Assembly (NCBI GenBank): GCA_041650715.1
Contig: JBAZKQ010000001.1
Location: 587,146-651,145, forward strand
DNA: 64,000 bases
Reading direction: 5' to 3'
Source of the DNA: Patescibacteria group bacterium
GTDB lineage: Bacteria > Patescibacteriota > Patescibacteriia > Patescibacteriales > UBA12465
The notes beneath the pieces were generated by a model that ran no database searches, was not told where the DNA came from, and was given only the letters and a program-made list of their open reading frames with translations. This document shows, piece by piece, positions 34,463-64,000 of the stretch (positions within the stretch are counted from its first letter, which is position 1; each line of letters starts with the position of its first letter). The position numbers and the translations under genes were made by a program.

Positions 34463-37400
34463 TTATTTAAGCTTATTTTTTAGTTCCAGTTTTTTGATTC
34501 TAGCTTCGAGAGTATCTATTTCCTTCTGCTGGGCTTTTACCGCTTCAATCAGAGGTGCAACTAAGTTACCATACTGAACGCCCTTTGCGCCTTCAGTCCC
34601 ACTAACTAATTCGGGATAAACTTTCTCTACTTCCTGAGCGACTAAACCGAGACTTGCAGCGCCGTCCGCCTTCCAATTAAAGGAAACCCCGCGCAGTTTC
34701 ATGATTTTATCCAAGGAATTATCCAAGGTTTTAATATTTTTCTTTAAATTACGATCGGAAGAATAAGTATAAGAAGTGGCCAGTACATTGCCGACGACCT
34801 CTAATTTACTGACCGGCGTCGTTGTGCCGATACCGACGTTAGCGCCCTTGACGTTTAATTGTCGATTGCCATAAAAATAAGTTCCGGTTGTTAAATTAAG
34901 CGCGGATATAACCTCGTCGGCGATCATGCTATACACGCCCATTTCCCCCTGATTATAGCCGTCCTGCATAATAATATCATTAGAGGTAAAGCCATAGGGG
35001 GCCGAAACGGCAGTACTTGCATATACGCTGCCAATGACCTGCAAGGCAGCCCCTGGATTCGTCGTCCCAATCCCAACTTTACCCAGCGATGTAATTGTCA
35101 CTTTGTCCGTTCCGCCGGTCTGTATTTTTAAAGTATCATTCACTCCATCCGCATTAATAATTGAGTAGCCGCCGGTATTGGAAAGCAAACTTAAAGTAGC
35201 GCTACCCGAGGTAGTCGGAGCAATATATAAAACGGCACCGCCCGCTTTATTAAGCGTTACGTCATTGCTAAGCAAAGTAGTACCGGCGACATTCAAGTTA
35301 TAGCTTCCCGTGGCAGTTGTGCCGATACCGACGTTGGAGCCAAAATAAGCTTTACCATCTAAACCGATAGCCGCGCCGATAGCACCGTTATTTGTAAAGA
35401 CGATTTGATGAGTATTAAGAAAGGGCGCACCGCCATTGGTGCTATAAGCATAGCCCATACCATATTGCGCACCAAAATTATCATTAGCTGTGCTCATCGG
35501 ATATGCTTCGGATATTGACCAAATGCCCTGAACCTCAGCCGCATTATAAGTTCCATAGCTGCCTAATCTTGATGTTTTGACGGCACCCAAAACGTCAAGC
35601 GCCACGGCTGGGTTTGTCGTACCTATCCCGACTTTACCATTCACGATCAAATTAGAAATATTACCATCAATAAAAGATCCGATTTCTACGGCCGGCCAAC
35701 CAGCGTCAACATTAATTTTTAAACTTGTATCTCCTCCTCCAGGACTCAAGGCGCCATAATTATCACCGGAAACATAGGTAGTCAAATTTAAAGAATGAAA
35801 GCTCGCAGAGCTGCCGCCAGTCACTGCCGCGGAAAAATTTGCCATCCCAGCAACATTTAATTTATAGGTGCCAGGGAGTGTTGTGCCAATACCTACGCCA
35901 GTGCCATTATCAAAAATAGAACTAATGGTTAAACCCGTAGAGCTTGCCCATTTTGTAACATAATTAGTTGTGCCAGTACCGGTAACTGTGCCGCTGCCAC
36001 CAGCCGGAAGAATAAGACAGCCTTCAGCATTTCCGGAAGCGTCAATACCCGCAGGATAATAGCCTGCCCCGCAATTAGTACCGTTAGCAGCCAAGGCGGT
36101 GGCTGTGCCTGACCGCAAACTGGCCGCCGTACCGGTTAACCCGGTACCGGCTCCGCTAAAAGATGAACCGGTTATCGTACTGGAGACATTTAAAGTTCCT
36201 AAAATATAACTATTGCCGTTTACATATAATCTATAGGCGCCCGGAGTTGTAGTGCCGATACCGACATTACCGGCGCCGGCGTCACCGTTATAAATAACGC
36301 CGTTTTTAGTCCCTTCCCAGAGATTACTGGCCGCAATTAAGGTCTTAACGTACCCTGTATTAGTCAGGGCGTAATCATCGGTGCCTAAATATGTACTTGT
36401 ATAATTATGACCTGTCGCGCTTGAACCGACCGGAGCATAGGCACCAACATTAGCGATTGAAAAACTATCATTCGGAGCACCGGTGCCACCGATACCGACA
36501 TTGCCGGCAGTCGGTTGCAAGAGGACATAACTCGTAGTTCTGGTGGCATTACTTGTTCCCTGCAAAGTTAGGTTTCCGCTCGCCACATCAGAACCATTTA
36601 TAGTCGCATTATCAGAAGTAAAAGTTAAAGAAGTCGGTCCGCCCCAATTAAAGGCGGCGCCGGTAGTAAGCGTAGTGAGTGATGAAGCGGTCAAAGATGT
36701 TTGCCCAGTTAAAGTCAGGGCGGTCGCCGTAAATAAAGCGCGCTGAACTCCGCCTAAAGTTAAGCCAATTTGACTTGCGGCCGGATGATACATGCCGGTT
36801 GTCAGGTCTCCGGTCCAAGCGAAGGAAGGTGTAGAAATAAGGTCAGCCGCTTGGCCTAAAAATTGAGTATCAGAACTAACTGAACTGGTAAATTTAGCAG
36901 GGCCGGAAACATTTAGGCGATATGCACCGGGAACGGATGTCCCAACACCGACATTGCCGGTAGAATCAACATAAACACCCTCATTACCACCGTCTCCCGA
37001 TAACCAATGAGTACTTAATTGAATATTTTGGGTTGCAATATGAGAACCTAAATCATCACCTCCGGTAGATGTTCCGCAGTCAACTCCTTTTGCCGAGACG
37101 ATACCGGTCGCATCAACATATAAACAGCGATTACCGGTACCGGCGAGCGTTGAATTGGTTATTTGGCCGTTAAAATAACTTGTACCGACGACCGCTAATT
37201 TCGCTAAGGGCGAAGTGGTGCCAATGCCGACATTGCCCGCGCCGGCGTCGCCATTATAAATAATACCATTATTGATGCCACTCCAGAGAAGCGAAGTGCA
37301 AGTTTCCGCATTGCCGGAAGCATCAATCCCGAGGGGGTAATTACCCGTCGTACAATTGTTCCCATTACCGGCAAGGGTGCTGGCCGAACCGGCCGTCGAT

Positions 37401-37669
37401 GCCGAAGAGGCAGTCAAGGCATAGCTCGAAGTTGAGGCATTTCCGGTATAGGTAGTAGCGTTGATTGAACCGCCCACACCGGCCGTCCAAGTTACTTTAT
37501 CGGCATTCGCGGCAAAATTTATTTTATACCCGCTGCCGATTCCTAAGCCGGTAACAAAGTTTGGCGTAGCCGCAAGAGCGTTTTGCGAAAAAGCAAAAAC
37601 AACCAGTAGGAATAAAATCGAAGCTGGAATAAGCAGGAATTTTTTATTATTCATATTATTATTCCTCAT
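34463..37669 (-). CDS. giant secreted tail-fibre-like protein with C-terminal intramolecular chaperone (peptidase S74) domain
   Basis: Signal peptide. Repeated NVGIGTTxPxxKLxVxG motifs and the ~90-aa module shared with the genes at 46052-64000. C-terminal SDRNLKKNIKTLDNSLDKIMKLRGVSFNWK...GLVAQEVEKVYPELV matches the self-cleaving chaperone domain of endosialidase/tail-fibre proteins. Confidence 0.7.
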   Translation of the reverse strand: MRNNNMNNKKFLLIPASILFLLVVFAFSQNALAATPNFVTGLGIGSGYKINFAANADKVTWTAGVGGSINATTYTGNASTSSYALTASSASTAGSASTLAGNGNNCTTGNYPLGIDASGNAETCTSLLWSGINNGIIYNGDAGAGNVGIGTTSPLAKLAVVGTSYFNGQITNSTLAGTGNRCLYVDATGIVSAKGVDCGTSTGGDDLGSHIATQNIQLSTHWLSGDGGNEGVYVDSTGNVGVGTSVPGAYRLNVSGPAKFTSSVSSDTQFLGQAADLISTPSFAWTGDLTTGMYHPAASQIGLTLGGVQRALFTATALTLTGQTSLTASSLTTLTTGAAFNWGGPTSLTFTSDNATINGSDVASGNLTLQGTSNATRTTSYVLLQPTAGNVGIGGTGAPNDSFSIANVGAYAPVGSSATGHNYTSTYLGTDDYALTNTGYVKTLIAASNLWEGTKNGVIYNGDAGAGNVGIGTTTPGAYRLYVNGNSYILGTLNVSSTITGSSFSGAGTGLTGTAASLRSGTATALAANGTNCGAGYYPAGIDASGNAEGCLILPAGGSGTVTGTGTTNYVTKWASSTGLTISSIFDNGTGVGIGTTLPGTYKLNVAGMANFSAAVTGGSSASFHSLNLTTYVSGDNYGALSPGGGDTSLKINVDAGWPAVEIGSFIDGNISNLIVNGKVGIGTTNPAVALDVLGAVKTSRLGSYGTYNAAEVQGIWSISEAYPMSTANDNFGAQYGMGYAYSTNGGAPFLNTHQIVFTNNGAIGAAIGLDGKAYFGSNVGIGTTATGSYNLNVAGTTLLSNDVTLNKAGGAVLYIAPTTSGSATLSLLSNTGGYSIINADGVNDTLKIQTGGTDKVTITSLGKVGIGTTNPGAALQVIGSVYASTAVSAPYGFTSNDIIMQDGYNQGEMGVYSMIADEVISALNLTTGTYFYGNRQLNVKGANVGIGTTTPVSKLEVVGNVLATSYTYSSDRNLKKNIKTLDNSLDKIMKLRGVSFNWKADGAASLGLVAQEVEKVYPELVSGTEGAKGVQYGNLVAPLIEAVKAQQKEIDTLEARIKKLELKNKLK

Positions 37670-37707
37670 CGCCCTAAATTCATAAAATAATCAAAGGCGA
37701 AGAAGGA

Positions 37708-38277
37708 CTATTTAACAATCATCGTGCCCGTGTTTCCGCGAAAGCCCGGAATATCATCACGGAAAGAATAGGATCCGGCGGCAGGAGCGGTAAATTCTAT
37801 AAGCTTGGTTTCACCACTTAAAATCATCATTGTCAGGCCCATTAAAGATGCGTTCGGAAAAATAAAAACATGAGTATTATTATCAACCGAACTGACGGCC
37901 AAGGATATCTTCTGACCGGCCGAAACGGTAAATTCTTTTGGGCTAAATCCTTCCGCAGAAACCGAAAGTTTTATGGCGCTCGTCGGAACATTACTCGTTT
38001 CGACAACCACCTGCTGGGGGGCATCGGCAGACCCGGGCAGTTCACCTAAAGTAGCGGGTATAACCGGAACTATCGTGCTGACATCAACTCCTTCAAGAGA
38101 GGCCGTCTTTGTTTCCGCTACCGGAGAAGTAGTAGCTTTACTCTCGCCGGCCGTATTTGATTGCGTTACGACGCCGGACGGTTTAAGCCAGTTTTTATTA
38201 CTTAAAAAAGCGAATAAAATTACTACTAAAATAATCACTAAAACAGCGATTAAAATAGTTAATTTTTTATTATTCAT
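37708..38277 (-). CDS. membrane-anchored cupredoxin-like protein (Cu ligands lost)
   Basis: Paralog of the 39878-40549 protein. The C-terminal motif is YSFRDDIPGFRGNTGTMIV, versus YTFRCDIPGHAARGEVGTMIV in the paralog. Confidence 0.45.
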   Translation of the reverse strand: MNNKKLTILIAVLVIILVVILFAFLSNKNWLKPSGVVTQSNTAGESKATTSPVAETKTASLEGVDVSTIVPVIPATLGELPGSADAPQQVVVETSNVPTSAIKLSVSAEGFSPKEFTVSAGQKISLAVSSVDNNTHVFIFPNASLMGLTMMILSGETKLIEFTAPAAGSYSFRDDIPGFRGNTGTMIVK

Positions 38278-38337
38278 AAGCTTAATATTCCCGCAAAAAA
38301 GAAGAAAAAGGAATAAATATTGATTATTAAAATTATA

Positions 38338-39888
38338 TCATTTTTGATAATAGAAATCAAATAAAACTTCATTTAAAAAGGGGGAATAAAAACTGTCCGT
38401 TTGCGCCGGAAAGTCGACGCGCAAAAAATAATTATTTTCTACCGTCGCCTTAAAAGTTTGGTTCAAATTTTGTCCGCTCGGCAGCTCTTGCCAAAAATTA
38501 TTGTCCGTCGAGAATGAAAGCTTCCCTTCCGAACAAGGATTATCGGGAGAACCTAACTTGCTGGCGGCCAATTTTTTAATAGTTATCCCCGGTTCGGCAA
38601 TAATGGCATTATAAATTAACTCACCCGGCATTCTACTCTCAAAACCACGATCAGTAAAAACCCGGTTCGTCTCCATATTGTCCTGCCTAATCGTGGCCAG
38701 CAAGACGAACTTATCGGCCGCTGCCGCGACAAGGCGGAAAGAGGCCGATTCCCCGGAATTACTAAAGATATTTTGATAATCAGCTTCACCACTAATTTTA
38801 CCATCACTATTTTGCCAAAGTTTAATGAGCCGCGGACGACCCAAGCTCGAGCTATAGATATACCAATTAACAACCCGTCCATTAGTGGCTTTGATAATTT
38901 CCGGCCTAAAACCGGTCGCCATTACCCGAAAATCAAAAAAAGTACTGATATCCGTTACCGTAGCAGCCTGAAAACGATAGGCCTCACCGCGATAAGCGCC
39001 ATAAATTACTAAATAATCAGTATCGGAACCGCCGAAGCCAAACTGCCCCAAATAAGGAGAACTAATTTTTTCGGTCTGGTCGCCGAAAATAAGCGGACTA
39101 AATTTATTGCCATCAAAAATGTAGACCCTCCCTTGATAAGCGTCGCCCTCTTTTAGAGTTAGTCCAAGCAACCAGCGGGTGTCAAGCGCGCCAATCGTTA
39201 AAGCGACCACGTCGGCGGCCTTAATTTCACCGGGCAAAGCGAGAGGCTTCCCCTGATAACTTAAATGCTTCCCCGTTTGTTCTAAACAATTTCCGCCGAG
39301 ACAGCGCCGGTCAGAAATAACGAGAGGCTCTAAAAAATCACTTATTTTATTTTGAGCTAATGAATTACTTTTAGCTAACTCCGCTTCATTTTTTAAACTT
39401 TGACCGGAAGATTCTTCTTCCCAGGTATAGCGCGGCGGAAAATAAACGGCCGCCGCCAAATCATCGCGATAAAGCGTGCTCGCCGCTGAATTTAGTAAAT
39501 AATCACTCGCGAAACTATCAAAAAACGAACTGAATATCTGCGGCTTATCATCCACAATAATCTCGGAACTTAAGCACGGAACGCCTCCGTCGAGATTATC
39601 CTGCTCAGATAAGCGGGTTTGGGACTGCTCTCGGCTTAAGATCCGTTCAGTCATCGAGCCGGAATTCGAACCTTGATTAGCGGCCGCAAAATAAGTCCGG
39701 CAGCAAAATATAGTCAAATAATAAACAGCAATTAAAAAAAGACTAAAAATAATTAAATAGCCTAAATTTAAAAAATATTTATTTTTAACAGTTTTTCGCA
39801 TAGCCCGCTTTATAGCGCTTAGACTCACTTTATGAAAATGCCCCGCTATAGAGCGGGGCATTTTATAAAAACCGAGATTATTGAACAA
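38338..39888 (-). CDS. membrane-anchored hypothetical protein
   Basis: 516 aa. N-terminal TM, no recognisable motifs. Confidence 0.35.
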   Translation of the reverse strand: MFNNLGFYKMPRSIAGHFHKVSLSAIKRAMRKTVKNKYFLNLGYLIIFSLFLIAVYYLTIFCCRTYFAAANQGSNSGSMTERILSREQSQTRLSEQDNLDGGVPCLSSEIIVDDKPQIFSSFFDSFASDYLLNSAASTLYRDDLAAAVYFPPRYTWEEESSGQSLKNEAELAKSNSLAQNKISDFLEPLVISDRRCLGGNCLEQTGKHLSYQGKPLALPGEIKAADVVALTIGALDTRWLLGLTLKEGDAYQGRVYIFDGNKFSPLIFGDQTEKISSPYLGQFGFGGSDTDYLVIYGAYRGEAYRFQAATVTDISTFFDFRVMATGFRPEIIKATNGRVVNWYIYSSSLGRPRLIKLWQNSDGKISGEADYQNIFSNSGESASFRLVAAAADKFVLLATIRQDNMETNRVFTDRGFESRMPGELIYNAIIAEPGITIKKLAASKLGSPDNPCSEGKLSFSTDNNFWQELPSGQNLNQTFKATVENNYFLRVDFPAQTDSFYSPFLNEVLFDFYYQK

Positions 39889-40549
39889 TCATTGTACCGA
39901 CTTCACCACGAGCGGCATGTCCAGGAATATCACAGCGGAAAGTATAGGTTCCCTTTTTCGGGGCGTTCCAGGACTTAACGCGTGTTTCTCCACCGGCAAC
40001 GCCAAGCGCAGTCGCAGTCAAAGCGGTGTCATCAGGCAAGAAAACGTGAGTAAAGCTATCAGTTGAAGTTAAAACAAAGTTAACCAATTGACCTTCCTTA
40101 ACCGTAAAGGTGTTCGGCACAAAACCAGCACCGCTCACTGATAATTTAACGGTATTAGCACCGGTCGGAACTTGGCTCGCAGAAATTGGAGCTGATTCTT
40201 TAGGGGCATCGGCTGAGGACGGCATAACATTCAATTTAACCGGCGTGCCTTCCGGGGTCACAACTTTATTCTCCTTTGTAACTAAGCTGGTTCCAGTCGC
40301 AACTGAAACGGACGAGGCGATAATTTCCGGAGTAGCCGTCGCCGTTGAAACGACATCCTTCGAAGGAGCGATTTCTTCAGGCGAAGTTGTCGCGTTGCTC
40401 GCTTCCTGAGTAGGAGTAGTTATCCCCCCAGTCGGCAATTGGATTTTCTTGCTTTGGCTAATCGCGACAATAATGATAATCACCACCACCGCAATAACTC
40501 CAAGCAAAATAAACACTTTTTTCTTGTTTGTTTGCATAGATTTAAACAA
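39878..40549 (-). CDS. membrane-anchored cupredoxin (plastocyanin/azurin-like blue-copper domain)
   Basis: N-terminal TM, Thr/Ser/Pro linker, C-terminal C-x2-PGH-x4-GxM copper-site motif (FRCDIPGHAARGEVGTM). Confidence 0.55.
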   Translation of the reverse strand: MFKSMQTNKKKVFILLGVIAVVVIIIIVAISQSKKIQLPTGGITTPTQEASNATTSPEEIAPSKDVVSTATATPEIIASSVSVATGTSLVTKENKVVTPEGTPVKLNVMPSSADAPKESAPISASQVPTGANTVKLSVSGAGFVPNTFTVKEGQLVNFVLTSTDSFTHVFLPDDTALTATALGVAGGETRVKSWNAPKKGTYTFRCDIPGHAARGEVGTMIVQ

Positions 40550-40566: not shown

Positions 40567-41151
40567 TTAACGGCTTGACGTATAATCGTACTTTACTTTT
40601 AAATTCAATCTCTGCTGTAAAAGATTCGCCTGCTTAAGTTTGCCCTGGGCGATTAACTTATAGGTTTCACCAAATTGCACAAAATTATCGGCATTGACCT
40701 CCGGTTTCCAGCCCTGGCCGACGATACTCCGCCAAGCCTGATAATCACCCGCCATAATAGCGGCATCAATCTCACTGATTTTAGTCGTCAATACTTGAAA
40801 ATCTTGCTTTAAATTTAATTGCTTTTTGATTAGATTCGCCTCTTCGACTTTACCTTGCTGCAAAAGACGATAAACTTCTGTAAATTGAGAAAAATTGTCG
40901 CTCGTAATCTTTGCCTTGAGACTTTTATCGGTAACAAGACTGCTCCAGGTAGCGTAATCATTATTCATAATCGCCTCCTCAATCGCCACATTCTTTTCTT
41001 GAATGATGGCATCGCGAGCCGCATTAGCCTCGACCATCGCTTTAACAAAGAGCGGGGTGAGGGCAGCCAAACAAAGAAGAATAAATCCGATGGCTGAAAA
41101 AATTAATAATTTTTTGTGGTCGTGGAGATAGTTTTTAAATCTCTGCGTCAT
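40567..41151 (-). CDS. membrane-anchored protein with two ~55-aa internal repeats
   Basis: DYATWSSLVTD...ANLIKKQLNLKQ and DYQAWRSIVGQ...ANLLQQRLNLKVK. Confidence 0.35.
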   Translation of the reverse strand: MTQRFKNYLHDHKKLLIFSAIGFILLCLAALTPLFVKAMVEANAARDAIIQEKNVAIEEAIMNNDYATWSSLVTDKSLKAKITSDNFSQFTEVYRLLQQGKVEEANLIKKQLNLKQDFQVLTTKISEIDAAIMAGDYQAWRSIVGQGWKPEVNADNFVQFGETYKLIAQGKLKQANLLQQRLNLKVKYDYTSSR

Positions 41152-41269
41152 AGATTTTTTTTAAATTAATTTTTGCGAAGTTATATAAAATTTAATATAT
41201 ACTAATTATAGCATTTCGCCTTTTGATTGGCAACAAGTTTAAGCAAGCCCGCTTGGTTCACCACCGTTT

Positions 41270-42556
41270 TTAGCGAAGCTGGTTCTTCTGATAATTATAG
41301 TCAAAAGACTGGTTAAAACTCGTAATTATCTTCCGGTCGTCAGTTACCAGAGCCGACTCATCGTTATTGTAGGCGCCGGCCCGGCTCCAATTATTCGTTC
41401 CGAAAAAAATCTTTTGATTATCCACAATCAGCAGATGGTAATGCAGGAAGGGATCGAGACTCTCTACCGAGCTGGAAGCTAAAGCACTTGCCTCGTCGCC
41501 ACGCGGCGCGTCACTTATAATCTCTAAATTATTTAATTGATATTTCTGCTTGGCGGCTATTAGATTCTGAAAAACCGAGCTTTTATTATATAAATTACGA
41601 TTATCGGTAATTATTGTCACTTTTACCCCGGCGCGGGCGCGGGTGATTATTTCGTTCGCCAAACCAGAATCGGTAAAATCCCAAATCATAATTCTGATTT
41701 CCTGTTTGGCGCTATGCAATAATGTATAAATTCGATTGCTTAGACTATTACCCGGTACGCCTGGACCAAACCAAACTTCATAATTAGAGCCGCCGGCCGT
41801 CATGCTTAAATCCCAGGGATTATATTTTTTATCGCTGAGTTTTTTCGGTCCCGATTCCCCCTTAGCTAAGCGCTCAAACTCTCGCCCAAAACTCTTGATA
41901 AATTCGGCGTTACTCGTAATCAAGATAAAGCTGGGGTCATACTTTTCTTGAAGTTCAGTCCAATTATAGGAACCAAAAATTAATTTCTGGTTAGCTTCCC
42001 CACGATCGATGAGCGCAAATTTATGATGCATCAAAATGGTCTTGCCACTCTTCTCTTCCCCCAAGTCTAAGCGCTTAATGTTCGCCGGCATATCGGGCAG
42101 AGCTTCGTCATGCACTTCCTTTTTTCGAAAATCAAGAACCAGGGTAACCTTAACGCCACGCTTGGCAGCCGCATAAATCGCGTCTCTGATGCGCGGCGAC
42201 TTTAAAGAGTAGACCGCAATCTCCAACGATTTTTGCGCCTGATTTATTTCCGCCTCAATCCGATCGGAAAAAACTGTTGTGCCAAGTTCGTCATTAAACA
42301 GAAGATCAGCAGAAACCGGTTCATTAGATTGGATAATACGCGCCGGTTTATTATTGGTCGCTAAATAATTAGTCACCGGCTCGGACCAGCGCCGGGTCAG
42401 CTGGGCGACGAAAAATAAAAGTCCTAAAACCAGAAAGACGAGCAGTGTAATCCGAACTGATTTTTTCTTGATAATTTTTCTAAGTGTTTTTTTAAATTTC
42501 ATAGTGTTCGCTAAAAGTATCTTTCCCGCTATCTTCCGTCGCGAAGAAAACGACAA
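41270..42556 (-). CDS. phospholipase-D-family protein (two HKD-like motifs, N-terminal TM anchor)
   Basis: First motif HHKFALIDx12GSYN (HxKx4D...GSxN). Second motif HYHLLIVDNQKIFFGTNN, with K->H substitution. N-terminal hydrophobic anchor. Confidence 0.6.
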   Translation of the reverse strand: MSFSSRRKIAGKILLANTMKFKKTLRKIIKKKSVRITLLVFLVLGLLFFVAQLTRRWSEPVTNYLATNNKPARIIQSNEPVSADLLFNDELGTTVFSDRIEAEINQAQKSLEIAVYSLKSPRIRDAIYAAAKRGVKVTLVLDFRKKEVHDEALPDMPANIKRLDLGEEKSGKTILMHHKFALIDRGEANQKLIFGSYNWTELQEKYDPSFILITSNAEFIKSFGREFERLAKGESGPKKLSDKKYNPWDLSMTAGGSNYEVWFGPGVPGNSLSNRIYTLLHSAKQEIRIMIWDFTDSGLANEIITRARAGVKVTIITDNRNLYNKSSVFQNLIAAKQKYQLNNLEIISDAPRGDEASALASSSVESLDPFLHYHLLIVDNQKIFFGTNNWSRAGAYNNDESALVTDDRKIITSFNQSFDYNYQKNQLR

Positions 42557-45390: not shown

Positions 45391-45414
45391 AAAAAAAATC
45401 AAATACCCTGGTCG

Positions 45415-45684: not shown

Positions 45685-45743
45685 TCGCCAGGATATTTAA
45701 TTTTAAAATTACTAAAAACTGTTAACTATAAATATCCTGATAA

Positions 45744-45988: not shown

Positions 45989-46051
45989 TTGTCAGGATAT
46001 TTAATTTTAAAAATACAGAGACTTTACGATCGCTCTAATTTATTATGTCAT

Positions 46052-56452: not shown

Positions 56453-56459
56453 AAATTAA

Positions 56460-59400
56460 TTATTTGCAGCACGTTATCTTCTTTATTGTATCACAACTAC
56501 TGAGAGATCCGCGACCCCCACCGGCGGAAGCGAATATCCAAAAATGTCCTAATTTACTATTGGTGCTATCAACCCAGCCGCCGCAATCATCCGCCGAGAC
56601 AACCCCTGTATATCCTGGGGGCCCATCCGCAATCCAGGCATCCTGGCCATTGATAGAACTAAAGCCGGCCGAACCGTTAGCCTGAATCAAATAAATAATT
56701 TCATCTGTCCGGCAGAAATGGCTACCGGTCGAAACCGCGTTACAAATTTTATTGCCTGCATCGTAGCCGACATAGCCGCCTGTATAGGTTAAGCTGCCAC
56801 CGGAGCTTGAACTCGTCAAGAAAATTGAAGTGACTGCTGTGCTCGTCGAAATTGTGCTCGTGGCGGCCGCTATCAAACTTTTAACATAACCGGTATTGGC
56901 CAGTGCGTAATCATCCGTATTTAAATAAGTGCTTGTAAAATTATGGCCCGTATTGAGAGAGCCAGCGAGTGCAGCCAGACCGCCATTACCAATCGAGAAT
57001 ATATCATTCGGAGCGGTTGTACCGATACCGACATAATTCGTACTATTATCAATCGTGATACCGCTACCATATAATAGGAGAGAATTTTGATAATCATAAA
57101 CCGCTAAACGGGTGTCGCCTAAAGCATCATATAAACCGAATTCTTCCCCGGAAAAAGTAGCGCCGTTACCGAGATAACCGGAGTAAAGTCCGCCGTTTAG
57201 TTTACTGGTAAATAGAGCAACCGGCCCTTGCGGCGTTTCAACATGGAGGCGGACAGTCGTTGAAACTCCCCCGCCGATACTGACGCTGCCGTTCGATTGT
57301 AAACGCATGACTTCGGTATTGTTAACTATAAACGGGAGCGGATGGTCGGTAAGGGTACCGAAAAGTTCAGTACGCGTGACATTATTTCCGCCCTTAATCC
57401 AAGCAATACTACTGGTCGCGGTGTCGATTAAGGTTTTGACCATTCCGTAATTAACCAAAGCATAGTCATCCGAACTTAAATAGGTATTCGTGAAGTTATG
57501 CCCGGTATTGGATGATCCGCCTGGAGCAGAGTCGCCATTATTACCAATTGAGAATATATCATTCGGAGCGGTTGTACCGATACCGACATAGTTTAAATTA
57601 TTATCGATTGCGAGTGCGCCACCATATAATAAGAGTGAGTTTTGATAATCATAAACCGCTAAACGGGTATCACTCAAAGAATCATATAAACCAAATTCTT
57701 CGCCGGAGAAGGTGGCGCCGTTACCAATATACCCAGAGTAAAGTCCACCGTTTAATTTGCTGGTAAATAGAGCAACCGGTCCTTGCGGCGTTTCAACGTG
57801 TAAACGAACCGTGGTAGATGTTCCTCCGCCCAAGCTGAGACTGCCGTTGGCCTGGAGGCGCATAACCTCATTATTATTAACAATAAATGGAATGGGATAA
57901 TTAGTGTGGGTCCCGAAAGTTTCCGTTTGGGAAACATTATTTCCGCCCTTAATCCAAGCATTACTAATAGAGGTCTCAATACTGCTGGTCGCGATTGCGA
58001 GCACGGAGTTTACATAACCGACGTTGGTCAGAGCGTAATCATCGGAGGACAAATATGTGCTGGTGAAATTATGGCCAGTATTGCCCGACCCAGCAGGAGC
58101 TGCGCCAGCATTGCCGATAGAAAATATGTCGTTTGGCTCGGTCGTGCCGATGCCGACGTTGCCAAATTTTCCTAAAATATCAAGGCCATCACCAGTCGTG
58201 TAGAGTATTCTTCCCCATTCATGATCAGTTGCTCCATATTTAACTAAAGCCTCTCCGCCACCTACTCCATATGAACCCAATCTACCAGGATAACCAGCTG
58301 ATAAATTTTCATCCGAAAGAACAAAGTCCATCCCCTGCCCGACACCGGAATTATATAAACTAAGAATATTATAGCTATTTGCTTCTACCGATAGAGGGGC
58401 GGTAGGATTCGTCGTCCCAATCCCGACATTGCCACTTAATATATTTAAAGTATTATCTCCGTATCCAAATACTCCGGAGGTATCGGAATAATTAGCCATG
58501 TTTCCGCCTGGGGTATTAATAAAAGTATTTCCGTCTACATCGGAAAGAGTAAGAGTGTAAGCACTTATACCTCCGGCTACGCCCAATTTATTTCCTGGAG
58601 CAGTTGTTCCGATACCGACATTATTGGCGCTATTTAAATTCCAAATATTTCCGCCGGTTGATCCGCCCCAAAGAGCCGCACCGCTTGTGGCTGTTCCGAT
58701 CATCGTTTTCACTAAACCATAGTTAGCTAAAGCGTAATCATCAGAGCTTAAATATGTGTTTGTAAAATTATGCCCAGTGTTTCCTGAACCGGCCGGAGCC
58801 GAACCCGCGTTACCGATAGAAAATATATCATTCGGAACGGTGGTGCCGATACCGACGTTAGCGTCCGATTTTATAAATAAAGCGCTTGTCCCCGGGTTGC
58901 CAGAGCCCGTCGTATTATTAACTCTAAAATTATGTTCAAGCGCTGTATACCTAAGAGCTGGGCGAATCCCTCCCCAAGTATTTGCTGCGATAGAAAAAGT
59001 TCCTAAATCAATAATATCCGTGGTCCCCCAGCCAACAGATGGTGATCTTTGAGGAGTACCGATAGCTAAAGATTTATGTGTACCCCCAGCAAAACCATCC
59101 TCTCCAAAAATTGGAGCACCCAATATTGTTTCATCTCCGCGGAAAAAAATATTTCCTGGAACGCCCCAGCCATGAACCCAAGAAGATGGGCCAATGCCCA
59201 TCGCCTGAAAGGCTCCACCAAGAGTGCTACCACGAGCCGTTAAAACTCTAGACTCCCCCTCTGAAGAATTAACATACAGGGTCATTGTCTTATAATTATC
59301 AGCATAAGCTCTAATATTAAAATAATTTGAAGAATTTAGTTCACTTCTAAAAATACTATTACCATTTACATCTAACTTTGCAATTGGTGTTGTCGTCCCA

Positions 59401-61262
59401 ATTCCGACATTATTGGCTGTATTTAAATTCCAAATATTTCCACCCGTTGTGCCGCCCCAAAGAGCCGCGCCGCTTGTGGCTGTTCCGATCATTGTTTTCA
59501 CTAAACCATAATTAGCTAAAGCGTAATCATCAGAGCTTAAATATGTGTTCGTAAAATTATGACCTGTACTGCCCGAACCAGCCGGAGCCGCACCGGCGTT
59601 GCCTATGGACAATAAATCATTCGGAGCGGTTGTACCGATGCCAACGTTGCCGGCGTTTGTCAGGACAAAAGGTGTTTTATAAGCCGTACCATCATAATAA
59701 ATATATTTCCAACCCTTCCATTGGCTTGGAGCTATATAACTATTACTGCTATTTTTTTCCATTACTGTCTGAGTTATCCAACCTTGGTCTCCGGAATTGC
59801 CATTAAAATTTCCTACTTGCCAGGCAAAAATTGCTCGATTTCCAGTCGAGCCTATTTTACTATCCGCAGTAATCAATCCTCGATTATCTGTCGATGTGTC
59901 ATTAAAACTAAATCCGGTAATAGCATTAACTGGTAAATTTATATTAAAAAGAGTTGAATATGCTGCTAACCCCGTGCCGTCAAGACTTAATTTTGCCCCC
60001 GGATTAGTCGTCCCAATCCCGACATTGCCTAAATCGTCAATTCTCATCTTTTCCGAAGCATTGTTTTTGAATATGATATTTGAATATGTTGCGTTTGAGT
60101 TGTTATCGCTATCACCTTCTAAAATTAAATTTCCAATAGACTGGGCTGCAAACTGTGTCGTTGAATTTCCATCCAAAATACCGATACCCCCCATATACAA
60201 TTTTCCATTATTTGTAGTCCCAATACGTGTGCTAGTGGCAACATCTAAAGTATACAAAGGATTAGTCGTCCCAATTCCGACGTTGCCATTCTGAAGTCTC
60301 ATAACTTCTGAAAATGATGACCCCTTTGTCCAAAATGCTGTATCAATATTACTACCACCAGAAGAAGTAGGAAAACGTATAGCTGCATAATTTGTAGCAG
60401 TTCCCGTATTCATAAAATCAATAGAGGGAACAGTTGCCGAGTTACCATTATACCCCCCATGAATCCGCATAATTGAAACTGTCTGTCCTGCAGTAAGTTG
60501 ACCCGCATCTACATCCAATTTAGCTGCCGGTGTTATCGTCCCAATCCCCACATTCCCCGCCCCCGCCGCACCATTCCAAATATTTCCGTCATATGTTCCG
60601 CCCCATAAAGATAGAATTGATCCGGTGGCCGAGCCAATCATTGTCTTAACCAAGCCATAATTAGCCAAAGCATAATCATCGGATGATAAATATGTGCTGG
60701 TAAAGTTATGGCCAGTGTTGGCTGATCCGGCCGGAGCGACACCGGCATTGCCGATGGAAAAAATATCATTAACGGCCGTTGTCCCAATACCGACTCCCTT
60801 ATTAGTTATCCCTCCGAGGCCGTTAGACTGAGCAATAATAGACATGATATTTTCTCCGTCCAATTTAAATACATAGGCTTCCGGGGTACCATTAAGCGCG
60901 GCTGAGGTAACCGGCATATCGACAAAAGTTACCAAGCCGGAGTCCGGACTAAATTCAAAGCTCCCGATATTAAGCGGCGCGCCGACCTCGATTTGATCGT
61001 TGGCGTTAACTTTAAACATATTAACAACGCCTGTGCCCGCCGCGTTATTCGCGGAAATCCAACCATTATTTAATATCTGGAAAAGAGCTGTTGGATTCGT
61101 CATGCCGATGCCGACGTTTCCGTTCGTGCCGTTAACCGTAAAATAAGGCTGATTAATATTGGCCGCGTTATAAATGGTGAAATTCTTCGCTGCGGCAACT
61201 GAAAAAGACAGCAGTGAGCCGATTATTACCATCAATATTATTTTGTTGCCTTGATATTTCAT
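56460..61262 (-). CDS. giant secreted tail-fibre-like repeat protein (1600 aa)
   Basis: Signal peptide. At least 6 copies of the module. An internal ~190-aa tandem duplication. C-terminal domain ending ...ITCCK, homologous to the C-terminus of the 2196-aa protein. Confidence 0.7.
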   Translation of the reverse strand: MKYQGNKIILMVIIGSLLSFSVAAAKNFTIYNAANINQPYFTVNGTNGNVGIGMTNPTALFQILNNGWISANNAAGTGVVNMFKVNANDQIEVGAPLNIGSFEFSPDSGLVTFVDMPVTSAALNGTPEAYVFKLDGENIMSIIAQSNGLGGITNKGVGIGTTAVNDIFSIGNAGVAPAGSANTGHNFTSTYLSSDDYALANYGLVKTMIGSATGSILSLWGGTYDGNIWNGAAGAGNVGIGTITPAAKLDVDAGQLTAGQTVSIMRIHGGYNGNSATVPSIDFMNTGTATNYAAIRFPTSSGGSNIDTAFWTKGSSFSEVMRLQNGNVGIGTTNPLYTLDVATSTRIGTTNNGKLYMGGIGILDGNSTTQFAAQSIGNLILEGDSDNNSNATYSNIIFKNNASEKMRIDDLGNVGIGTTNPGAKLSLDGTGLAAYSTLFNINLPVNAITGFSFNDTSTDNRGLITADSKIGSTGNRAIFAWQVGNFNGNSGDQGWITQTVMEKNSSNSYIAPSQWKGWKYIYYDGTAYKTPFVLTNAGNVGIGTTAPNDLLSIGNAGAAPAGSGSTGHNFTNTYLSSDDYALANYGLVKTMIGTATSGAALWGGTTGGNIWNLNTANNVGIGTTTPIAKLDVNGNSIFRSELNSSNYFNIRAYADNYKTMTLYVNSSEGESRVLTARGSTLGGAFQAMGIGPSSWVHGWGVPGNIFFRGDETILGAPIFGEDGFAGGTHKSLAIGTPQRSPSVGWGTTDIIDLGTFSIAANTWGGIRPALRYTALEHNFRVNNTTGSGNPGTSALFIKSDANVGIGTTVPNDIFSIGNAGSAPAGSGNTGHNFTNTYLSSDDYALANYGLVKTMIGTATSGAALWGGSTGGNIWNLNSANNVGIGTTAPGNKLGVAGGISAYTLTLSDVDGNTFINTPGGNMANYSDTSGVFGYGDNTLNILSGNVGIGTTNPTAPLSVEANSYNILSLYNSGVGQGMDFVLSDENLSAGYPGRLGSYGVGGGEALVKYGATDHEWGRILYTTGDGLDILGKFGNVGIGTTEPNDIFSIGNAGAAPAGSGNTGHNFTSTYLSSDDYALTNVGYVNSVLAIATSSIETSISNAWIKGGNNVSQTETFGTHTNYPIPFIVNNNEVMRLQANGSLSLGGGTSTTVRLHVETPQGPVALFTSKLNGGLYSGYIGNGATFSGEEFGLYDSLSDTRLAVYDYQNSLLLYGGALAIDNNLNYVGIGTTAPNDIFSIGNNGDSAPGGSSNTGHNFTNTYLSSDDYALVNYGMVKTLIDTATSSIAWIKGGNNVTRTELFGTLTDHPLPFIVNNTEVMRLQSNGSVSIGGGVSTTVRLHVETPQGPVALFTSKLNGGLYSGYLGNGATFSGEEFGLYDALGDTRLAVYDYQNSLLLYGSGITIDNSTNYVGIGTTAPNDIFSIGNGGLAALAGSLNTGHNFTSTYLNTDDYALANTGYVKSLIAAATSTISTSTAVTSIFLTSSSSGGSLTYTGGYVGYDAGNKICNAVSTGSHFCRTDEIIYLIQANGSAGFSSINGQDAWIADGPPGYTGVVSADDCGGWVDSTNSKLGHFWIFASAGGGRGSLSSCDTIKKITCCK

Positions 61263-61333
61263 TGCGCTTTTTACTTCTATATTATATCACAGAAAATTGA
61301 TTTTTTTGTTTTGTCTACCGACTTTTATTTTTC

Positions 61334-63874
61334 CTATCGGCCTTTATCGTACAGCGACTGAACTTCGGCGGCGGAAAGTGCGCGATCATAAATGCGCAAA
61401 CTGGAAATCGAACCTAAAAAATAATCTGACATAGTCGTTCTACCCACATAAACATTATCTCCGCTTACTGCAATCGGGTATTTGGCCGGCGTCCCCGGCT
61501 GTCCGTTAACATAAAATGTACCATTTGAATTGGCGACATAAACCCAATCGCTGCTGGTCCCCTCGGCGTACCAAAAAGAATAACTTACTTTATTCCCCGG
61601 CACAGTAATTTTAATATTATTGCCATAGCTATCATAGCCGTTGAGTAAATCCTGAACGGAGGGTTCAGTGCCGTCGACGACATCAAAGCGAGGGTAAACC
61701 GTATAATGCACTATATTTGCATCATTCCCTTGATAGACAGCAAGTGTTCTGCCTCTGGCCGTAGTTGTTTCCGGTGCCCACTTAAAATCGACGGTTGTAT
61801 TTGCAAAAAAACCGCTCGTTTTATAAACTCCGGAATCGGGATGACGGGTCGTGCCGGTATAAGTATACGGAAAAACATGAGCAACCACTAAAACCCATTG
61901 CCCGACCGGTAACTGCGCCTCTGAAGGGACTGTATTTGTGCTCCAAAAATAAGGATTCGTATTATAAGTGCCCGCGGCCAAATTTATCACCCCACTGACC
62001 GAACCATAACCGTTTAACCCCGCATAATAACGTGCCGAGGTCGCACCGGCATTAGTCACTCTTTTTTCCCACCAAGACATACGATAGAGTTTTGTATTAT
62101 CAATCGGTATCGCACTATTATATATCCCCCCTGTAATGCCACTCTTCCAAACCGGAACTTCTCTACCCCAAGGGTCGGCGGCAATAACGCGACTATTTGC
62201 AGCTCCGTAAAGAGCGAAGGTGCCGATAGAACCCGTCTGTCCGTCTTTCCAGACGCGATAATTTAAGGTTAAATTTTCTAAATTATCTGCGGATAGAGTT
62301 GTGGCGTCTTCGGTAAAATTTGCGCCATAATTAATTCCACTATTTTCATAAGGTGTTTTATCCGCGACCTTACCCGTGGTGGCGCTATAATTATCACTAT
62401 CGAGCGGCCAATAGCCGAGCAGACCTTTCTGCAAAGAATCGGAAACAACTTTTGGTCTATTAGAATTATAAAGAGCGCTAACTTCATCTAAAGAAAGGGC
62501 GCGGTTATAAATGCGAACATCGCTAATGGCGGCCATTCCCCATTGCGCAGGAGAGGTTCCATTCCCCCAAGCGCCTATCCCAAAATTTGAATTATCGCAA
62601 GCAGTCGCCGGAACGGTTAAAGTAGAAATAACCTGTCCGCCGTTACCAATAATTGTTTCCGTTGTACCTTGTCTCATGATAACGATGTGATTCCATTGTC
62701 CATCTGGCAAGGTGACAAAAACTCCATATGGAGCGCTGGCTTGTTTTATGCCTCCGCCCCATGAATTTGCCACACTACTATTTCTTCCTAACCAAAAACA
62801 ATTAGTAAAATTTTTATCGGCCAATCTTTCATAGGCCCGGATATTGCCGTCATCTTTAAACCATAAAGCAACGGTGAAGTCCGTCAATTGGTTGGTAAAA
62901 TTAGTTGAAATTCTATTGCTTCCGTCAAAACTCATCGCTCCGTCCGCTTTGCCGTTCCGATCCGTTGTCAAAGTTGCTCCGTAATTTGTGCCGTTATTTT
63001 CATATGGCGTTTTATCGGAAACTCGGTTTGAAGTCGCATCAAAATTAGCGCCGTCGAGTGGCCAATAAGCGACCAGGCCGGTTTGTGTTGAACCGACAGT
63101 TAGTTTTGGTTTAGAGGAATTATAAAGCGCTTTAACCTCGGAGGCCGACAGAGCACGATTGTATATTTTTACTGCCCCGATACTACCTCCAAAATATTGA
63201 GACACGGGGCCCCGACCGATAATGACATTCGTCGCGTTTACGGCGGGAACTATTGTTTGCGCGCCAGACGTTTTATAGATTCCATCCTGATAAAGCGTCA
63301 CTGTTGTGCCGTTCCAGGTAGCAACAATATGTGTCCATTGATCTTTTACTGTATTGGGAAAAGAGCGGCTGAGGACGCTTCCGCCGTTTCTCATACCAAT
63401 ACCAATGACATTACTGGAAAAAGCATAGATGCCCCAACCGTCGGTATCCCAGCCGGCACTCGCCCCCTTACTAACCAGGTTGGGGTACGTATTCCCCGAC
63501 CATGTGGACGGTATTTTTACCCAAATGCTTACAGTCGCTCCTGCCTGTAGATTATAAATAGAGCTATTCCCCTGATTAATATAATCCGTCGTTCCATTAA
63601 AACTCATCGCGCCTGTGCTTTTACCATAATTATCCGGGACGAAGTTGGCGGCGTTAGCCGAAACACCATTATTGCCGATGGCGTTATCAGAAAAAACTTT
63701 AGTACTGGAATTATAATTATTCTGAGATAAACTTAGATCTAAAATTAAGCCATCATTATCATCCTGATAAGCATTGCCTCCAAATAAATTAAGCCCGGAA
63801 GCACTGGCAAAATAAGCCGCACCGGCCGCAATAATAATTAATCCAAGAATGATTGTCAGTTTTTTCTTCATCAT
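61334..63874 (-). CDS. secreted protein with three LamG/concanavalin-A-like jelly-roll repeats
   Basis: Signal peptide. Three ~220-aa repeats each ending in RALSxxEVxxLYNSxxPK (LamG-like lectin/glucanase superfamily pattern). Confidence 0.6.
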   Translation of the reverse strand: MMKKKLTIILGLIIIAAGAAYFASASGLNLFGGNAYQDDNDGLILDLSLSQNNYNSSTKVFSDNAIGNNGVSANAANFVPDNYGKSTGAMSFNGTTDYINQGNSSIYNLQAGATVSIWVKIPSTWSGNTYPNLVSKGASAGWDTDGWGIYAFSSNVIGIGMRNGGSVLSRSFPNTVKDQWTHIVATWNGTTVTLYQDGIYKTSGAQTIVPAVNATNVIIGRGPVSQYFGGSIGAVKIYNRALSASEVKALYNSSKPKLTVGSTQTGLVAYWPLDGANFDATSNRVSDKTPYENNGTNYGATLTTDRNGKADGAMSFDGSNRISTNFTNQLTDFTVALWFKDDGNIRAYERLADKNFTNCFWLGRNSSVANSWGGGIKQASAPYGVFVTLPDGQWNHIVIMRQGTTETIIGNGGQVISTLTVPATACDNSNFGIGAWGNGTSPAQWGMAAISDVRIYNRALSLDEVSALYNSNRPKVVSDSLQKGLLGYWPLDSDNYSATTGKVADKTPYENSGINYGANFTEDATTLSADNLENLTLNYRVWKDGQTGSIGTFALYGAANSRVIAADPWGREVPVWKSGITGGIYNSAIPIDNTKLYRMSWWEKRVTNAGATSARYYAGLNGYGSVSGVINLAAGTYNTNPYFWSTNTVPSEAQLPVGQWVLVVAHVFPYTYTGTTRHPDSGVYKTSGFFANTTVDFKWAPETTTARGRTLAVYQGNDANIVHYTVYPRFDVVDGTEPSVQDLLNGYDSYGNNIKITVPGNKVSYSFWYAEGTSSDWVYVANSNGTFYVNGQPGTPAKYPIAVSGDNVYVGRTTMSDYFLGSISSLRIYDRALSAAEVQSLYDKGR

Positions 63875-64000
63875 ATCCCAATCATGAAATTACCGTTTGC
63901 ATCGAGCAGGATCGAACTCGAACTTGCGCTTGCCTTAAAAGTACCGACTATTTCCATTTTCTGGGTCGGTGTCGAGGTTCCAACGCCGACGTTCCCACTA
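63871..64000 (-). CDS. C-terminal end of another tail-fibre-like repeat protein (partial; N-terminus beyond window end)
   Basis: Minus-strand translation ...SGNVGVGTSTPTQKMEIVGTFKASASSSSILLDANGNFMIGI* carries the NVG(I/V)GT motif. The stop TGA overlaps the ATG of the downstream gene (ATGA). Confidence 0.5.
   Translation of the reverse strand, partial: SGNVGVGTSTPTQKMEIVGTFKASASSSSILLDANGNFMIGI

Follow-up and report, generated by a model that had tools for sequence, protein, structure and literature searches.

A probable array of Sec-exported, tail-fibre-like proteins on a patescibacterial chromosome, with short-tract gene conversion among its stalk modules

Genes of the array and their products

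The window, that is, the whole stretch of 64,000 nucleotides that was analysed, contains four complete minus-strand genes of one family (g1 to g4) and a fifth that is cut by the window end. All five genes proposed in an earlier note on this DNA exist. The genes and their main parts are as follows.

34463-37669, minus strand: g1, fibre protein of 1068 aa with signal peptide and, at the C-terminus, a Peptidase_S74 chaperone; contains 9 GNVGIGT-type motifs, a single core module and one copy of module 2
34604-34759, minus strand: Peptidase_S74 intramolecular chaperone/autoprotease of g1, aa 971-1022 (Pfam PF13884, E = 4.2e-17)
36903-37238, minus strand: module 2 copy of g1, 74% nucleotide identity to 46914-47246 and 47985-48280 in g2
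46052-49843, minus strand: g2, 1263 aa, with signal peptide, Cys-rich N-terminal region, 3 core modules and 2 copies of module 2
Within 46052-49843, minus strand: C-terminal domain of g2, not of the S74 type (..TIDPLYNIN..YRLIGKRYDW..)
49862-56452, minus strand: g3, 2196 aa, with signal peptide, Cys-rich N-terminal region and predicted C-type-lectin-like tip; contains 6 core modules and 16 GNVGIGT motifs
49865-50269, minus strand: tip of g3, Cys-rich ('..ACCK'), predicted C-type-lectin-like fold
56460-61262, minus strand: g4, 1600 aa, with signal peptide, 6 core modules and a predicted C-type-lectin-like tip
Within 56460-61262, minus strand: internal tandem unit of g4, ~190 aa
56463-56867, minus strand: tip of g4, Cys-rich, in one tip family with that of g3 (33% identity)
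63871-64000, minus strand: 3' end of the fifth family member, 751 aa at full length (L001 327-2582, matches P0011)

The encoded proteins range from 751 to 2196 aa and each bears a Sec signal; the spacing of the genes is tight and operon-like. Signal peptides were read directly off the translations by sequence pattern, the N-terminus of g1 to g4 and of the 751-aa protein being basic and followed by a hydrophobic stretch and an A-x-A-like site. The N-terminal regions differ from one another, with Cys-rich regions present in g2 and g3 and absent from g1 and g4. A LamG-domain protein is also encoded within the array. On the minus strand, 37 G[NKSY][VIL]G[IV]G motifs were counted, and heterogeneous stalk segments are punctuated by the motif GNVGIGTTxPxxKL. 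Plus-strand ORFs with the recurrent peptide 'VVPIPTLP' (17 such peptides) were, as had been suggested, antisense shadows of GNVGIGTT.

All four complete genes matched the PHROG tail-fibre families phrog_9942 and phrog_18345 (E = 1e-13 to 1e-25). The S74 domain of g1 contains the catalytic-type motif SDRNLK (SDxxxK), and phmmer matches of this region included 6f45, which is the phage S16 long-tail-fibre chaperone, as well as 7dc3 and 8ojn. The domain is confined to g1; g2, g3 and g4 would therefore be 'NS74' members. With g1, phmmer alignments across the GNVGIGT..P..KL motif were obtained to Bd2133 (8ond, E = 1.1e-5), Bd3182 (8ojn, E = 1.1e-4) and MyRF. Mosaic adhesive trimer (MAT) proteins of Bdellovibrio have a domain that is beta-rich, conserved and ~130 aa long directly after the signal peptide and a 'capping loop' motif, V-G-G/N-pi-x-x-P-x-x-x-L, that is repeated on a beta-helical/beta-prism fibre (PMC10769870). 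The stalk motif of the array resembles this published motif in a register one residue off the consensus. In the alignment of the g3 and g4 tips, Cys, Trp and GPP columns are invariant. The predicted C-type-lectin-like tip, an independent domain whose fold is a known binding fold, resembles the tip of Bd2740. The description of the proteins as host- or partner-attachment fibres is thus upheld as far as homology goes (PHROG, S74, the Bd2133 and Bd3182 alignments, the Bd2740-like tip). From these likenesses we infer that the proteins would form trimeric fibres, be displayed at the surface and bind partner or host cells through their tips.

Each protein consists of a signal peptide, a gene-specific N-terminal region, a long heterogeneous stalk with GNVGIGTTxPxxKL motifs and one of several alternative tips. 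In g1 the protein ends in an S74 autoproteolytic chaperone, whereas g3 and g4 have the predicted C-type-lectin-like domain and g2 and the 751-aa protein have domains of other kinds.

The tail-fibre matches and the S74 chaperone would also suit fibres of a prophage, tailocin or contractile injection system instead of cellular adhesins, and a homologous contig is listed as viral in IMG/VR. However, that contig contains just the same two fibre genes, and no capsid, terminase, portal, sheath or baseplate domain was detected among the ORFs scanned. Next to the fibre genes lie those for GatA, LigA, malic enzyme, glycosyltransferases and cupredoxins. In a second genome the array is conserved in synteny, with contigs of 0.2-1 Mb, and Sec signal peptides are present on all fibre proteins. 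Membership in a phage-type particle is considered very unlikely. A structural role in the envelope, as an S-layer-like coat or spacer, or binding of abiotic surfaces or polymers, in either case with no recognition of partner cells, would be compatible with stalks that account for most of the protein mass and with the LamG-domain protein in the same array. It accounts less well for alternative tips on otherwise similar stalks, which are C-type-lectin-like, S74-processed, of the FISUMP type (in relatives) or different again. Receptor-binding fibres of phages and Bdellovibrio show this combination (PMC10769870), and a purely structural or polymer-binding role is judged unlikely.

The core module and the traces of gene conversion

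A module of 64-95 residues, made of a 64-aa core to which a 30-aa tail may be added, recurs in the stalks. Full copies were located with an HMM.

36323-36508, minus strand: core module of g1, 91.6 bits
48584-48772, minus strand: first core module of g2, 118.3 bits
47537-47725, minus strand: second core module of g2, 116.4 bits
46574-46762, minus strand: third core module of g2, 118.7 bits
50216-50401, 51686-51874, 52496-52684, 53312-53500, 54830-55018 and 55637-55822, minus strand: six core modules of g3
56850-57041, 57405-57593, 57978-58166, 58680-58865, 59469-59654 and 60615-60803, minus strand: six core modules of g4

The earlier note had given the correct module consensus and overestimated its abundance: instead of ~22 copies, 16 full modules were found in the window (1, 3, 6 and 6 in g1 to g4), and ~30 other weak HMM matches consisted of the short GNVGIGTTxP motif alone. 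Three further modules lie just outside the window, in the full 751-aa fifth gene. Multiple copies, which had been attributed to every gene, are present in g2, g3 and g4; g1 has one, and within the window the partial ORF lacks the module. Nor are the proteins 'built from' the module, which accounts for ~22% of their length. A second module (..GNRCLYVDA..) is common to g1 and g2, as had been noticed, and occurs once in the former and twice in the latter.

Nucleotide identity between core modules was lower than the 75-85% first proposed. The median over module pairs was 63% in a 100-codon window, and the parts alignable by BLAST were mostly 70-80% identical. Third-position identity was 40-60%, the median dS 1.7 and dN/dS 0.11, and 38 of the 120 module pairs were saturated. 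Most module pairs are old, and the module is under strong purifying selection. It has no model in Pfam or NCBIfam, and an AF2 monomer model of it was poor (pLDDT 56). Among 1.84 billion cluster representatives, no more than 99 carry the module. The matching genomes include Falkowbacteria and Parcubacteria MAGs, and several others are titled 'uncultured bacterium' or 'uncultured Gammaproteobacteria'. The genome that harbours the array is patescibacterial (CPR), most probably of the Falkowbacteria. The module is a recurring stalk element specific to its lineage.

Tracts of exact nucleotide identity were found within and between the genes.

47151-47227 = 48186-48262, minus strand: 77-nt exact tract in g2, encodes TTTPAYKLAVVGTSYLNGQITTALS
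51660-51712 = 52470-52522, minus strand: 53-nt exact tract in g3, encodes LIAAATSSLPAGGTNFW
48356-48406 in g2 = 51947-51997 in g3, minus strand: 51-nt exact inter-gene tract
47511-47554 = 48558-48601, minus strand: 44-nt exact tract in g2, encodes the linker peptide of the g3 tract in other codons

An exact run of 41 nt is also present. The whole 64 kb contains 18 exact direct repeats of at least 24 nt, 16 of them in fibre genes. The 77-nt run is part of an internal pair of g2 (46950-47249 versus 47985-48284, 84.7% identity). A tract of ~140 nt in this pair had been described as ~95% identical; the pair is real, and the tract is 91% identical at an offset of 1035 nt rather than 1025. The 51-nt tract lies within a third shared segment, 48259-48533 versus 51850-52119, which is 78% identical. 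A 47-mer quoted in the earlier note occurs exactly twice, at 51666 and 52476, and belongs to the 53-nt run. In the fifth gene (751 aa), a tract of ~180 nt showed ~96% identity with a 67-nt exact run inside.

The exact tracts sit where amino acids are conserved in several copies, which would suit an explanation that involves no recombination, by chance runs or by purifying selection combined with codon bias on an invariant peptide. The 38-nt run in an 87%-identical pair of g4 would agree with it, being non-significant in a Sawyer-type permutation (global p = 0.17). The same permutation gave a global p of ~0.001 for two pairs, however, and the 77-nt and 51-nt runs have an analytic expectation of ~1e-4 or less at pair identities of 78-85%. 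In a four-way codon alignment of the linker LIAAATSSLPAGGTNFW, the codons were identical within g2 and within g3, whereas most synonymous sites differed between g2 and g3. One peptide is thus written in different codons in the two genes and in identical codons inside each. In addition, modules group by genome. An origin of the tracts with no recombination is given hardly any credence. The exact tracts amid near-saturated synonymous sites, together with codon sharing within genes and the homogenisation seen against a second genome, support short-tract gene conversion, both within and between genes, as had been proposed for the paralogous modules.

Homogenisation within the genome and re-assortment of stalks

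The comparison of full arrays was performed with two genomes (n = 2); an exact-protein look-up matched the source assembly only. A syntenic array is present in the second genome (L011/L022), whose reverse transcriptase (RT) is 83% identical. The nearest neighbour of 27 of the 29 modules lay in its own genome, and a genome-specific signature, DRTGHNNAS versus NTGHNF/YT, was common to three genes. Among 40 proteins of the family, 36 of 72 modules had their nearest neighbour in the same protein, compared with 2.6 expected. Terminal module copies escape this homogenisation. The data support concerted evolution of the modules within a genome; lineage-specific duplication and loss (birth-and-death), in addition to conversion, could partly account for the clustering by genome. 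The termini of orthologues were 67-77% identical, and most interior stalk segments had no counterpart. Between the two genomes the stalk interiors have been re-assorted, and the N-terminal and tip regions have remained collinear.

The fibre genes were ~33-38% identical to their counterparts, versus 83% for the adjacent RT. This faster divergence, the many homologous segments in one locus and the real conversion tracts would speak for programmed antigenic or phase variation, in which modules serve as donor cassettes copied often into an expressed gene, similar to pilE/pilS or vlsE. However, the 16 modules of the window are all contained in four complete ORFs, each with a start codon and a signal peptide, so silent cassettes are absent. 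Inversions, inverted repeats and promoterless partial cassettes were likewise not found in the window, and no recombinase was present among the ORFs scanned. The converted tracts occupy the most conserved parts of the proteins. Since donor and recipient encode the same peptide, conserved across copies, the tracts point to homogenisation of a conserved stalk element and not to variation of exposed epitopes; with synonymous tracts, recombination is evident and functional diversification is not. For the tips, where ligands are probably bound, there are no DNA-level repeat partners. The earlier analogy to cassette-based antigenic variation is not sustained, and a programmed system of this kind appears most improbable.

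The RT belongs to a conserved ncRNA-RT-ABC-like-PLD cassette located inside the fibre array. Positions 44000-46100 were scanned on both strands against the whole window for a template/variable pair of a diversity-generating retroelement (DGR), with 60-nt windows, at most 2 non-A mismatches and at least 4 A mismatches as the criterion; no pair was detected. The best matches of the RT were a group II intron RT/maturase (115 bits, below cutoff) and PADLOC RT_UG26, from profiles that include no DGR-specific model. The cassette also occurs in other genomes, there with no fibre genes, and appears unrelated to the array.

Interpretation and comparison with known systems

The reading that we favour, and regard as likely, is a chromosomal array of paralogous Sec-exported, tail-fibre-like proteins of the MAT type whose modules recombine by short-tract conversion. 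It brings together what was observed: architecture, homologies, conversion tracts, concerted evolution, and stalks re-assorted between the two genomes. With 19 copies spread over five neighbouring genes, the module would act as homology for recombination. Short-tract conversion, intra- and inter-genic, would repeatedly overwrite parts of module copies, which in the longer term would evolve in concert within the genome. Segments would be gained, lost and swapped in the stalk interior, with collinearity kept in the N-terminal and tip regions. A fast-evolving attachment repertoire of this kind is real and not unprecedented. More tentatively, the module and the GNVGIGTT-coding junctions might be built-in recombination linkers by which an episymbiotic CPR lineage could exchange tips and segments of the stalk between paralogs, an arrangement resembling the module shuffling of phage tail fibres. 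Were this rather unlikely proposal correct, the array would be an evolvable host-range determinant in a group whose host-recognition machinery is largely uncharted, and homogenisation of the module would be maintained because it keeps the paralogs recombination-competent.

Partner recognition by CPR/Patescibacteria is poorly understood, and work so far has mostly concerned type IV pili. The locus offers a second candidate attachment apparatus, made of clustered tail-fibre/MAT-like fibres with lectin-like and other tips, and this repertoire evolves far faster than its neighbours (~35% versus 83% identity in the closest syntenic genome). It is also a clean natural case of short-tract conversion and concerted evolution on dispersed multi-gene repeats, and binding assays and structure work would find concrete targets in the tip domains and the module.

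Streptococcal alpha-C/Rib proteins and staphylococcal repeat adhesins have near-identical tandem repeats that evolve in concert. As in the array, conversion or unequal crossing-over makes the repeats of one genome alike, their number varies between relatives, and terminal copies escape homogenisation. Unlike in alpha-C/Rib, the repeats of the array are dispersed among unrelated stalk segments of several genes and are mostly old (dS >1), with short recent tracts. DGR-diversified C-type-lectin proteins of CPR bacteria were reportedly described by Paul et al. in 2017; these surface proteins end in a C-type-lectin-like domain, as the presumed surface proteins of the array are predicted to do, and a neighbouring RT gene is a further shared feature. 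In contrast to these systems, the best matches of the RT here are group-II-like/UG-type, and an adenine-specific template/variable repeat was not found in the scan of 44000-46100.

With phage S74 fibres and tailspikes (K1F endosialidase, T5 pb1, S16 gp37), g1 shares the S74 domain with SDxxxK, and the array genes have the mosaic, recombining domain architecture of tail fibres. Unlike these, the array is chromosomal with no virion genes nearby, its products carry Sec signal peptides, and S74 is present in one of five members. Among the closest parallels, in a comparison of signal peptide, stalk motif, S74 and tip, is the MAT family of Bdellovibrio bacteriovorus (Caulton et al. 2024, PMC10769870). 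MAT proteins are likewise of ~1000+ aa, with a signal peptide and a tail-fibre-like stalk, and form a multi-paralog repertoire of S74 and non-S74 members with interchangeable adhesive tips, among them a C-type-lectin fold. The stalk motif (..GNVGIGTxxPxxKL..) can be aligned directly with both Bd2133 and Bd3182. According to the literature, MAT-bearing Bdellovibrio and CPR hosts both live on other bacteria. Unlike the MAT genes, those of the array belong to a monoderm CPR lineage and are clustered head-to-tail, and the stalk of a single protein can hold as many as 7 copies of the lineage-specific TGHN-type module (64-95 aa), among which gene conversion is demonstrable.

Fibre genes and their surroundings

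Four complete fibre genes (g1 to g4) and the end of a fifth, which is cut by the window end, formed one array together with a lectin-domain gene:

34463-37669, minus: fibre gene g1, 1068 aa
46052-49843, minus: fibre gene g2, 1263 aa
49862-56452, minus: fibre gene g3, 2196 aa
56460-61262, minus: fibre gene g4, 1600 aa
61334-63874, minus: secreted protein of 846 aa with three Laminin_G_3 (concanavalin-like lectin) domains
63871-64000, minus: last 42 codons of the fifth fibre gene, whose complete protein (751 aa) belongs to the same family

The complete fifth gene was read from the source contig, 758 kb of metagenomic DNA retrieved by an exact-protein look-up (ENA ERZ27247363 k141_1088855). A typical Sec signal peptide was present at the N terminus of all four proteins g1 to g4. 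Because g2 and g3 are only 18 nt apart, and g3 and g4 only 7 nt, these three genes are operon-like in appearance. The Laminin_G_3 protein lies inside the array, flanked by g4 and the fifth fibre gene, and lacks the repeated module of its neighbours; in a second genome its place is taken by a different fibre gene. The rest of the window carries housekeeping genes such as GatA, LigA and malic enzyme, indicating that the array DNA is chromosomal. The closest relatives of the module and of the adjoining RT include MAGs of Candidatus Falkowbacteria and Parcubacteria.

Between g2 and g1 the array is split by an RT-ncRNA cassette (40567-46016, minus) that is kept in many Patescibacteria:

45401-45712 and 45730-46016, minus: structured RNA of ~230-310 nt, in two tandem units
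44170-45402, minus: group-II-like/UG-type (UG26-like) RT, 406-410 aa
42492-44195, minus: protein resembling an ABC-transporter membrane domain, ~566 aa (567 aa here)
41270-42556, minus: two-domain PLD nuclease, NucT/DrmC-like
40567-41151, minus: ~200-aa protein (194 aa here)

Folding of the two RNA units gave z = -8 and -7, and the RNA is likewise present in two copies in another locus (L006). In an alignment of seven sequences, 19 of the 58 pairs carried compensatory changes. A covariance model covering the 5' domain had matches immediately upstream of the RT in L019, L020 and L021 (E = 1e-15 to 2e-9), all left out of model building, and Rfam contained no family for this RT-associated RNA. 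A reading of the RT as part of a DGR was rejected, as no template/variable pair was detected. A functional link between cassette and fibres as a general rule was also rejected, since L013, L014 and L016 carry the cassette without fibre genes; for the same reason the cassette appears to have inserted independently into the array. The cassette may serve as a defence system or represent some other RT-ncRNA system. The 2136-aa gene adjoining the RT in L015 was considered as the family protein P0005, and this assignment was discarded because L015 contains no module according to the HMM.

Several further features were recorded around the array. Near g1 are a secreted lipoprotein-like protein combining fn3-like repeats with a Fib_succ_major (FISUMP) domain (31816-33075, plus) and a secreted Cys-rich protein of 310 aa without a Pfam match (33192-34124, minus), which together enlarge the local surface-protein content. 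At 37708-40549 (minus), a protein of 516 aa without a family match sits between two membrane-anchored cupredoxin-domain paralogues of 189 and 223 aa, and the second genome (L011) has the same order after its RT cassette. Two tRNA-Ser genes with anticodons TGA and GGA (18596-18683 and 25643-25728, minus; ~75% mutually identical) were both called by ARAGORN, and only the first by Rfam at the gathering threshold. GC content was 32-34% in the first 6 kb of the window compared with 40-47% elsewhere (positions 1-7000 against the rest). This low-GC stretch carries glycosyltransferase and polysaccharide-flippase genes and may be a surface-polysaccharide island that was acquired horizontally or is evolving fast.

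The stalk module and exact sequence tracts

A regular-expression search, followed by one with an HMM made from the copies, put the number of full-length core modules in the window at exactly 16, each scoring >90 bits (one in g1, three in g2 and six each in g3 and g4); the fifth gene adds three copies beyond the window. The core of ~64 aa reads GNVGIGTTxPNDxFSIGNxGxAPAGSxNTGHN(F/Y)TxTYLSxDDYALxNYGxVKTLIxxATSS and is followed in 11 copies by a tail, (L/F)WGGTxNGNIWNGxAGAGNVGIGTT. About 30 extra weak HMM hits contained only the short motif GNVGIGTTxP, which recurs along the whole stalk in every protein. The module accounts for only about one fifth of protein length; thus, the proteins g1 to g4 are mosaics and not concatemers of one unit. 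A 'GNRCLYVDA' segment is present as one copy in g1 and two in g2, and a 'TLEVNTLSSTLGGTEAQ' segment is common to g2 and g3. The observation in the earlier note was partly confirmed. The repeat itself, the second module common to g1 and g2, and the explanation of plus-strand '(A/L)VVPIPTLP' ORFs as antisense readings of GNVGIGTT were right in substance; the count of about 22 copies, the identity levels and the description 'built from one module' had to be corrected.

The module family is rare. An exhaustive profile search retrieved 99 of 1.84 billion cluster representatives at E <= 1e-3; this type of search was required, as a word-index protein search with one 100-aa module as query gave no match. 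Pfam and NCBIfam hold no model for the module, and neither the module profile nor the tip profile gave a significant match to PDB sequences. The AF2 monomer model of the module was poor (pLDDT 56) and unfit for fold search.

Module pairs had a median nucleotide identity of 63%, lower than previously claimed, with 40-60% identity at third codon positions. The median Nei-Gojobori dS was 1.7, with saturation in 38 of 120 pairs, and dN/dS was 0.11. The majority of module pairs are old. Amid these diverged modules, the following exact runs were observed:

77 nt, g2 with g2
53 nt, g3 with g3, including a 47-mer noticed earlier
51 nt, g2 with g3
44 nt, g2 with g2
41 nt, g4 with g4

The whole 64-kb window contained 18 exact direct repeats of at least 24 nt, 16 of them within the fibre genes. 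In a Sawyer-type permutation of polymorphic sites, a global p of ~0.001 was obtained for the g3 pair and the g2 pair; for the g4 pair of highest similarity, the same test found the 38-nt run not significant. A four-way codon alignment was made of the linker peptide LIAAATSSLPAGGTNFW, which two modules of g2 and two of g3 have in common. Within g2 and within g3 it is encoded by the same codons, and most synonymous sites differ between the genes. Codon bias or selection on the peptide cannot give codon identity within genes together with differences between them; localised copying inside each gene can. Assembly collapse is an unlikely cause of the exact runs because they are shorter than the assembler k-mer (k141 in the contig name). 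In the fifth gene, two modules share ~180 nt at ~96% identity, including a 67-nt exact run, between diverged flanks. The permutation result and the LIAAATSSLPAGGTNFW codon pattern thus uphold the earlier proposal that identical tracts amid diverged modules imply gene conversion.

The corresponding array in a second genome

A syntenic array was found in the JGI contigs Ga0209340_1000025 (L011) and Ga0074198_1000003 (L022), in the order [1391+ aa fibre]-[g4 orthologue]-[g3 orthologue]-[g2 orthologue]-ncRNA-RT. The orthologues of g4, g3 and g2 encode 1714 aa with five modules, 2054 aa with seven and 1405 aa with three, respectively. The adjacent RT is 83% identical between the two genomes, whereas the fibre orthologues are only 32-38% identical overall. 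Both ends of these proteins are collinear, with 67-77% identity over the first 210-256 aa and the last 180-235 aa; in the stalk interior most segments lack a counterpart, and module number is unequal in two of the three orthologue pairs. When the modules of both genomes were pooled, 27 of 29 were closest to another module of their own genome, the two others being one positional orthologue and one terminal copy. A signature private to the second genome, SDRTGHNNASTYLSSDNYAL, marks its modules in three different genes, and their DNA is 80-90% identical even between genes. Among 40 family proteins, 36 of 72 modules had their nearest neighbour within the same protein, compared with 2.6 expected. 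The two-genome pattern is one of concerted evolution and stalk re-assortment. At this between-genome level, the pattern favours the earlier note over the alternative of uniform divergence and a fixed module order. A metagenome scan with the g3 N terminus gave no match, and its repeat with a two-sequence alignment returned only the already known L011 genome.

Relation to tail fibres and MAT fibres

For g1 to g4, Pfam yielded only the intramolecular chaperone Peptidase_S74 (S74) at the end of g1, and NCBIfam nothing. All four were assigned to tail-fibre families in PHROGs (E = 1e-13 to 1e-31). Against PDB sequences, g1 matched the phage S16 long-tail-fibre chaperone (6f45), MyRF (7dc3) and two mosaic adhesive trimer (MAT) fibres of Bdellovibrio, Bd2133 (8ond, E = 1e-5) and Bd3182 (8ojn). 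The alignments to Bd2133 and MyRF span '..RMxIxxxGNVGIGTxxPxxKLxV'. MAT and S74 beta-helical fibres bear a 'capping loop' motif, V-G-G/N-pi-x-x-P-x-x-x-L (Caulton et al., PMC10769870); the aligned GNVGIGTxxPxxKL stretch of g1 corresponds to it. The SDxxxK catalytic motif is present in g1 as SDRNLK.

Among the 99 family representatives, at least six alternative tips were found on the same stalks: a predicted lectin-like 'CCK' domain, the g2-type domain, S74, a short 'GTFKASASSSSIILD' end, a 'KGDLLT..VLVNLQ' domain and Fib_succ_major. A profile search of PDB sequences found no relatives of the g2 C-terminal domain or the YadA-like middle region of g3.

Phage structural genes were absent from the ORFs scanned around the array. 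The sole good match in a scan of viral contigs with the module, IMGVR_UViG_3300001866_000229, is catalogued as viral in IMG/VR; it contains only g3 and g2 orthologues, with the same sequence as L011/L022. This contig is probably cellular and owes its viral label to the tail-fibre-like genes, and a phage origin of the module is unsupported.

The best-supported reading is that the array represents a clustered repertoire of secreted tail-fibre/MAT-type fibres in a CPR bacterium, with the module as a lineage-specific, strongly constrained stalk element. Being repeated in neighbouring genes, the module undergoes short-tract gene conversion and concerted evolution, and the stalk interior is re-assorted between related genomes with the ends retained. 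That the tips may attach the fibres to a partner cell is a reasonable inference from the Bdellovibrio and phage analogues and from the episymbiotic lifestyle reported for cultivated Patescibacteria. The earlier interpretation was partly supported, as gene conversion was upheld and the analogy to cassette-type antigenic variation was not: silent cassettes, inversions and a DGR template/variable pair are all absent. Nor do the visible conversions act as surface variation, as they are synonymous homogenisation with no epitope change. The array belongs to the known MAT-type or phage tail-fibre-like adhesin repertoires, with a lineage-specific module and unusually clear conversion signatures.
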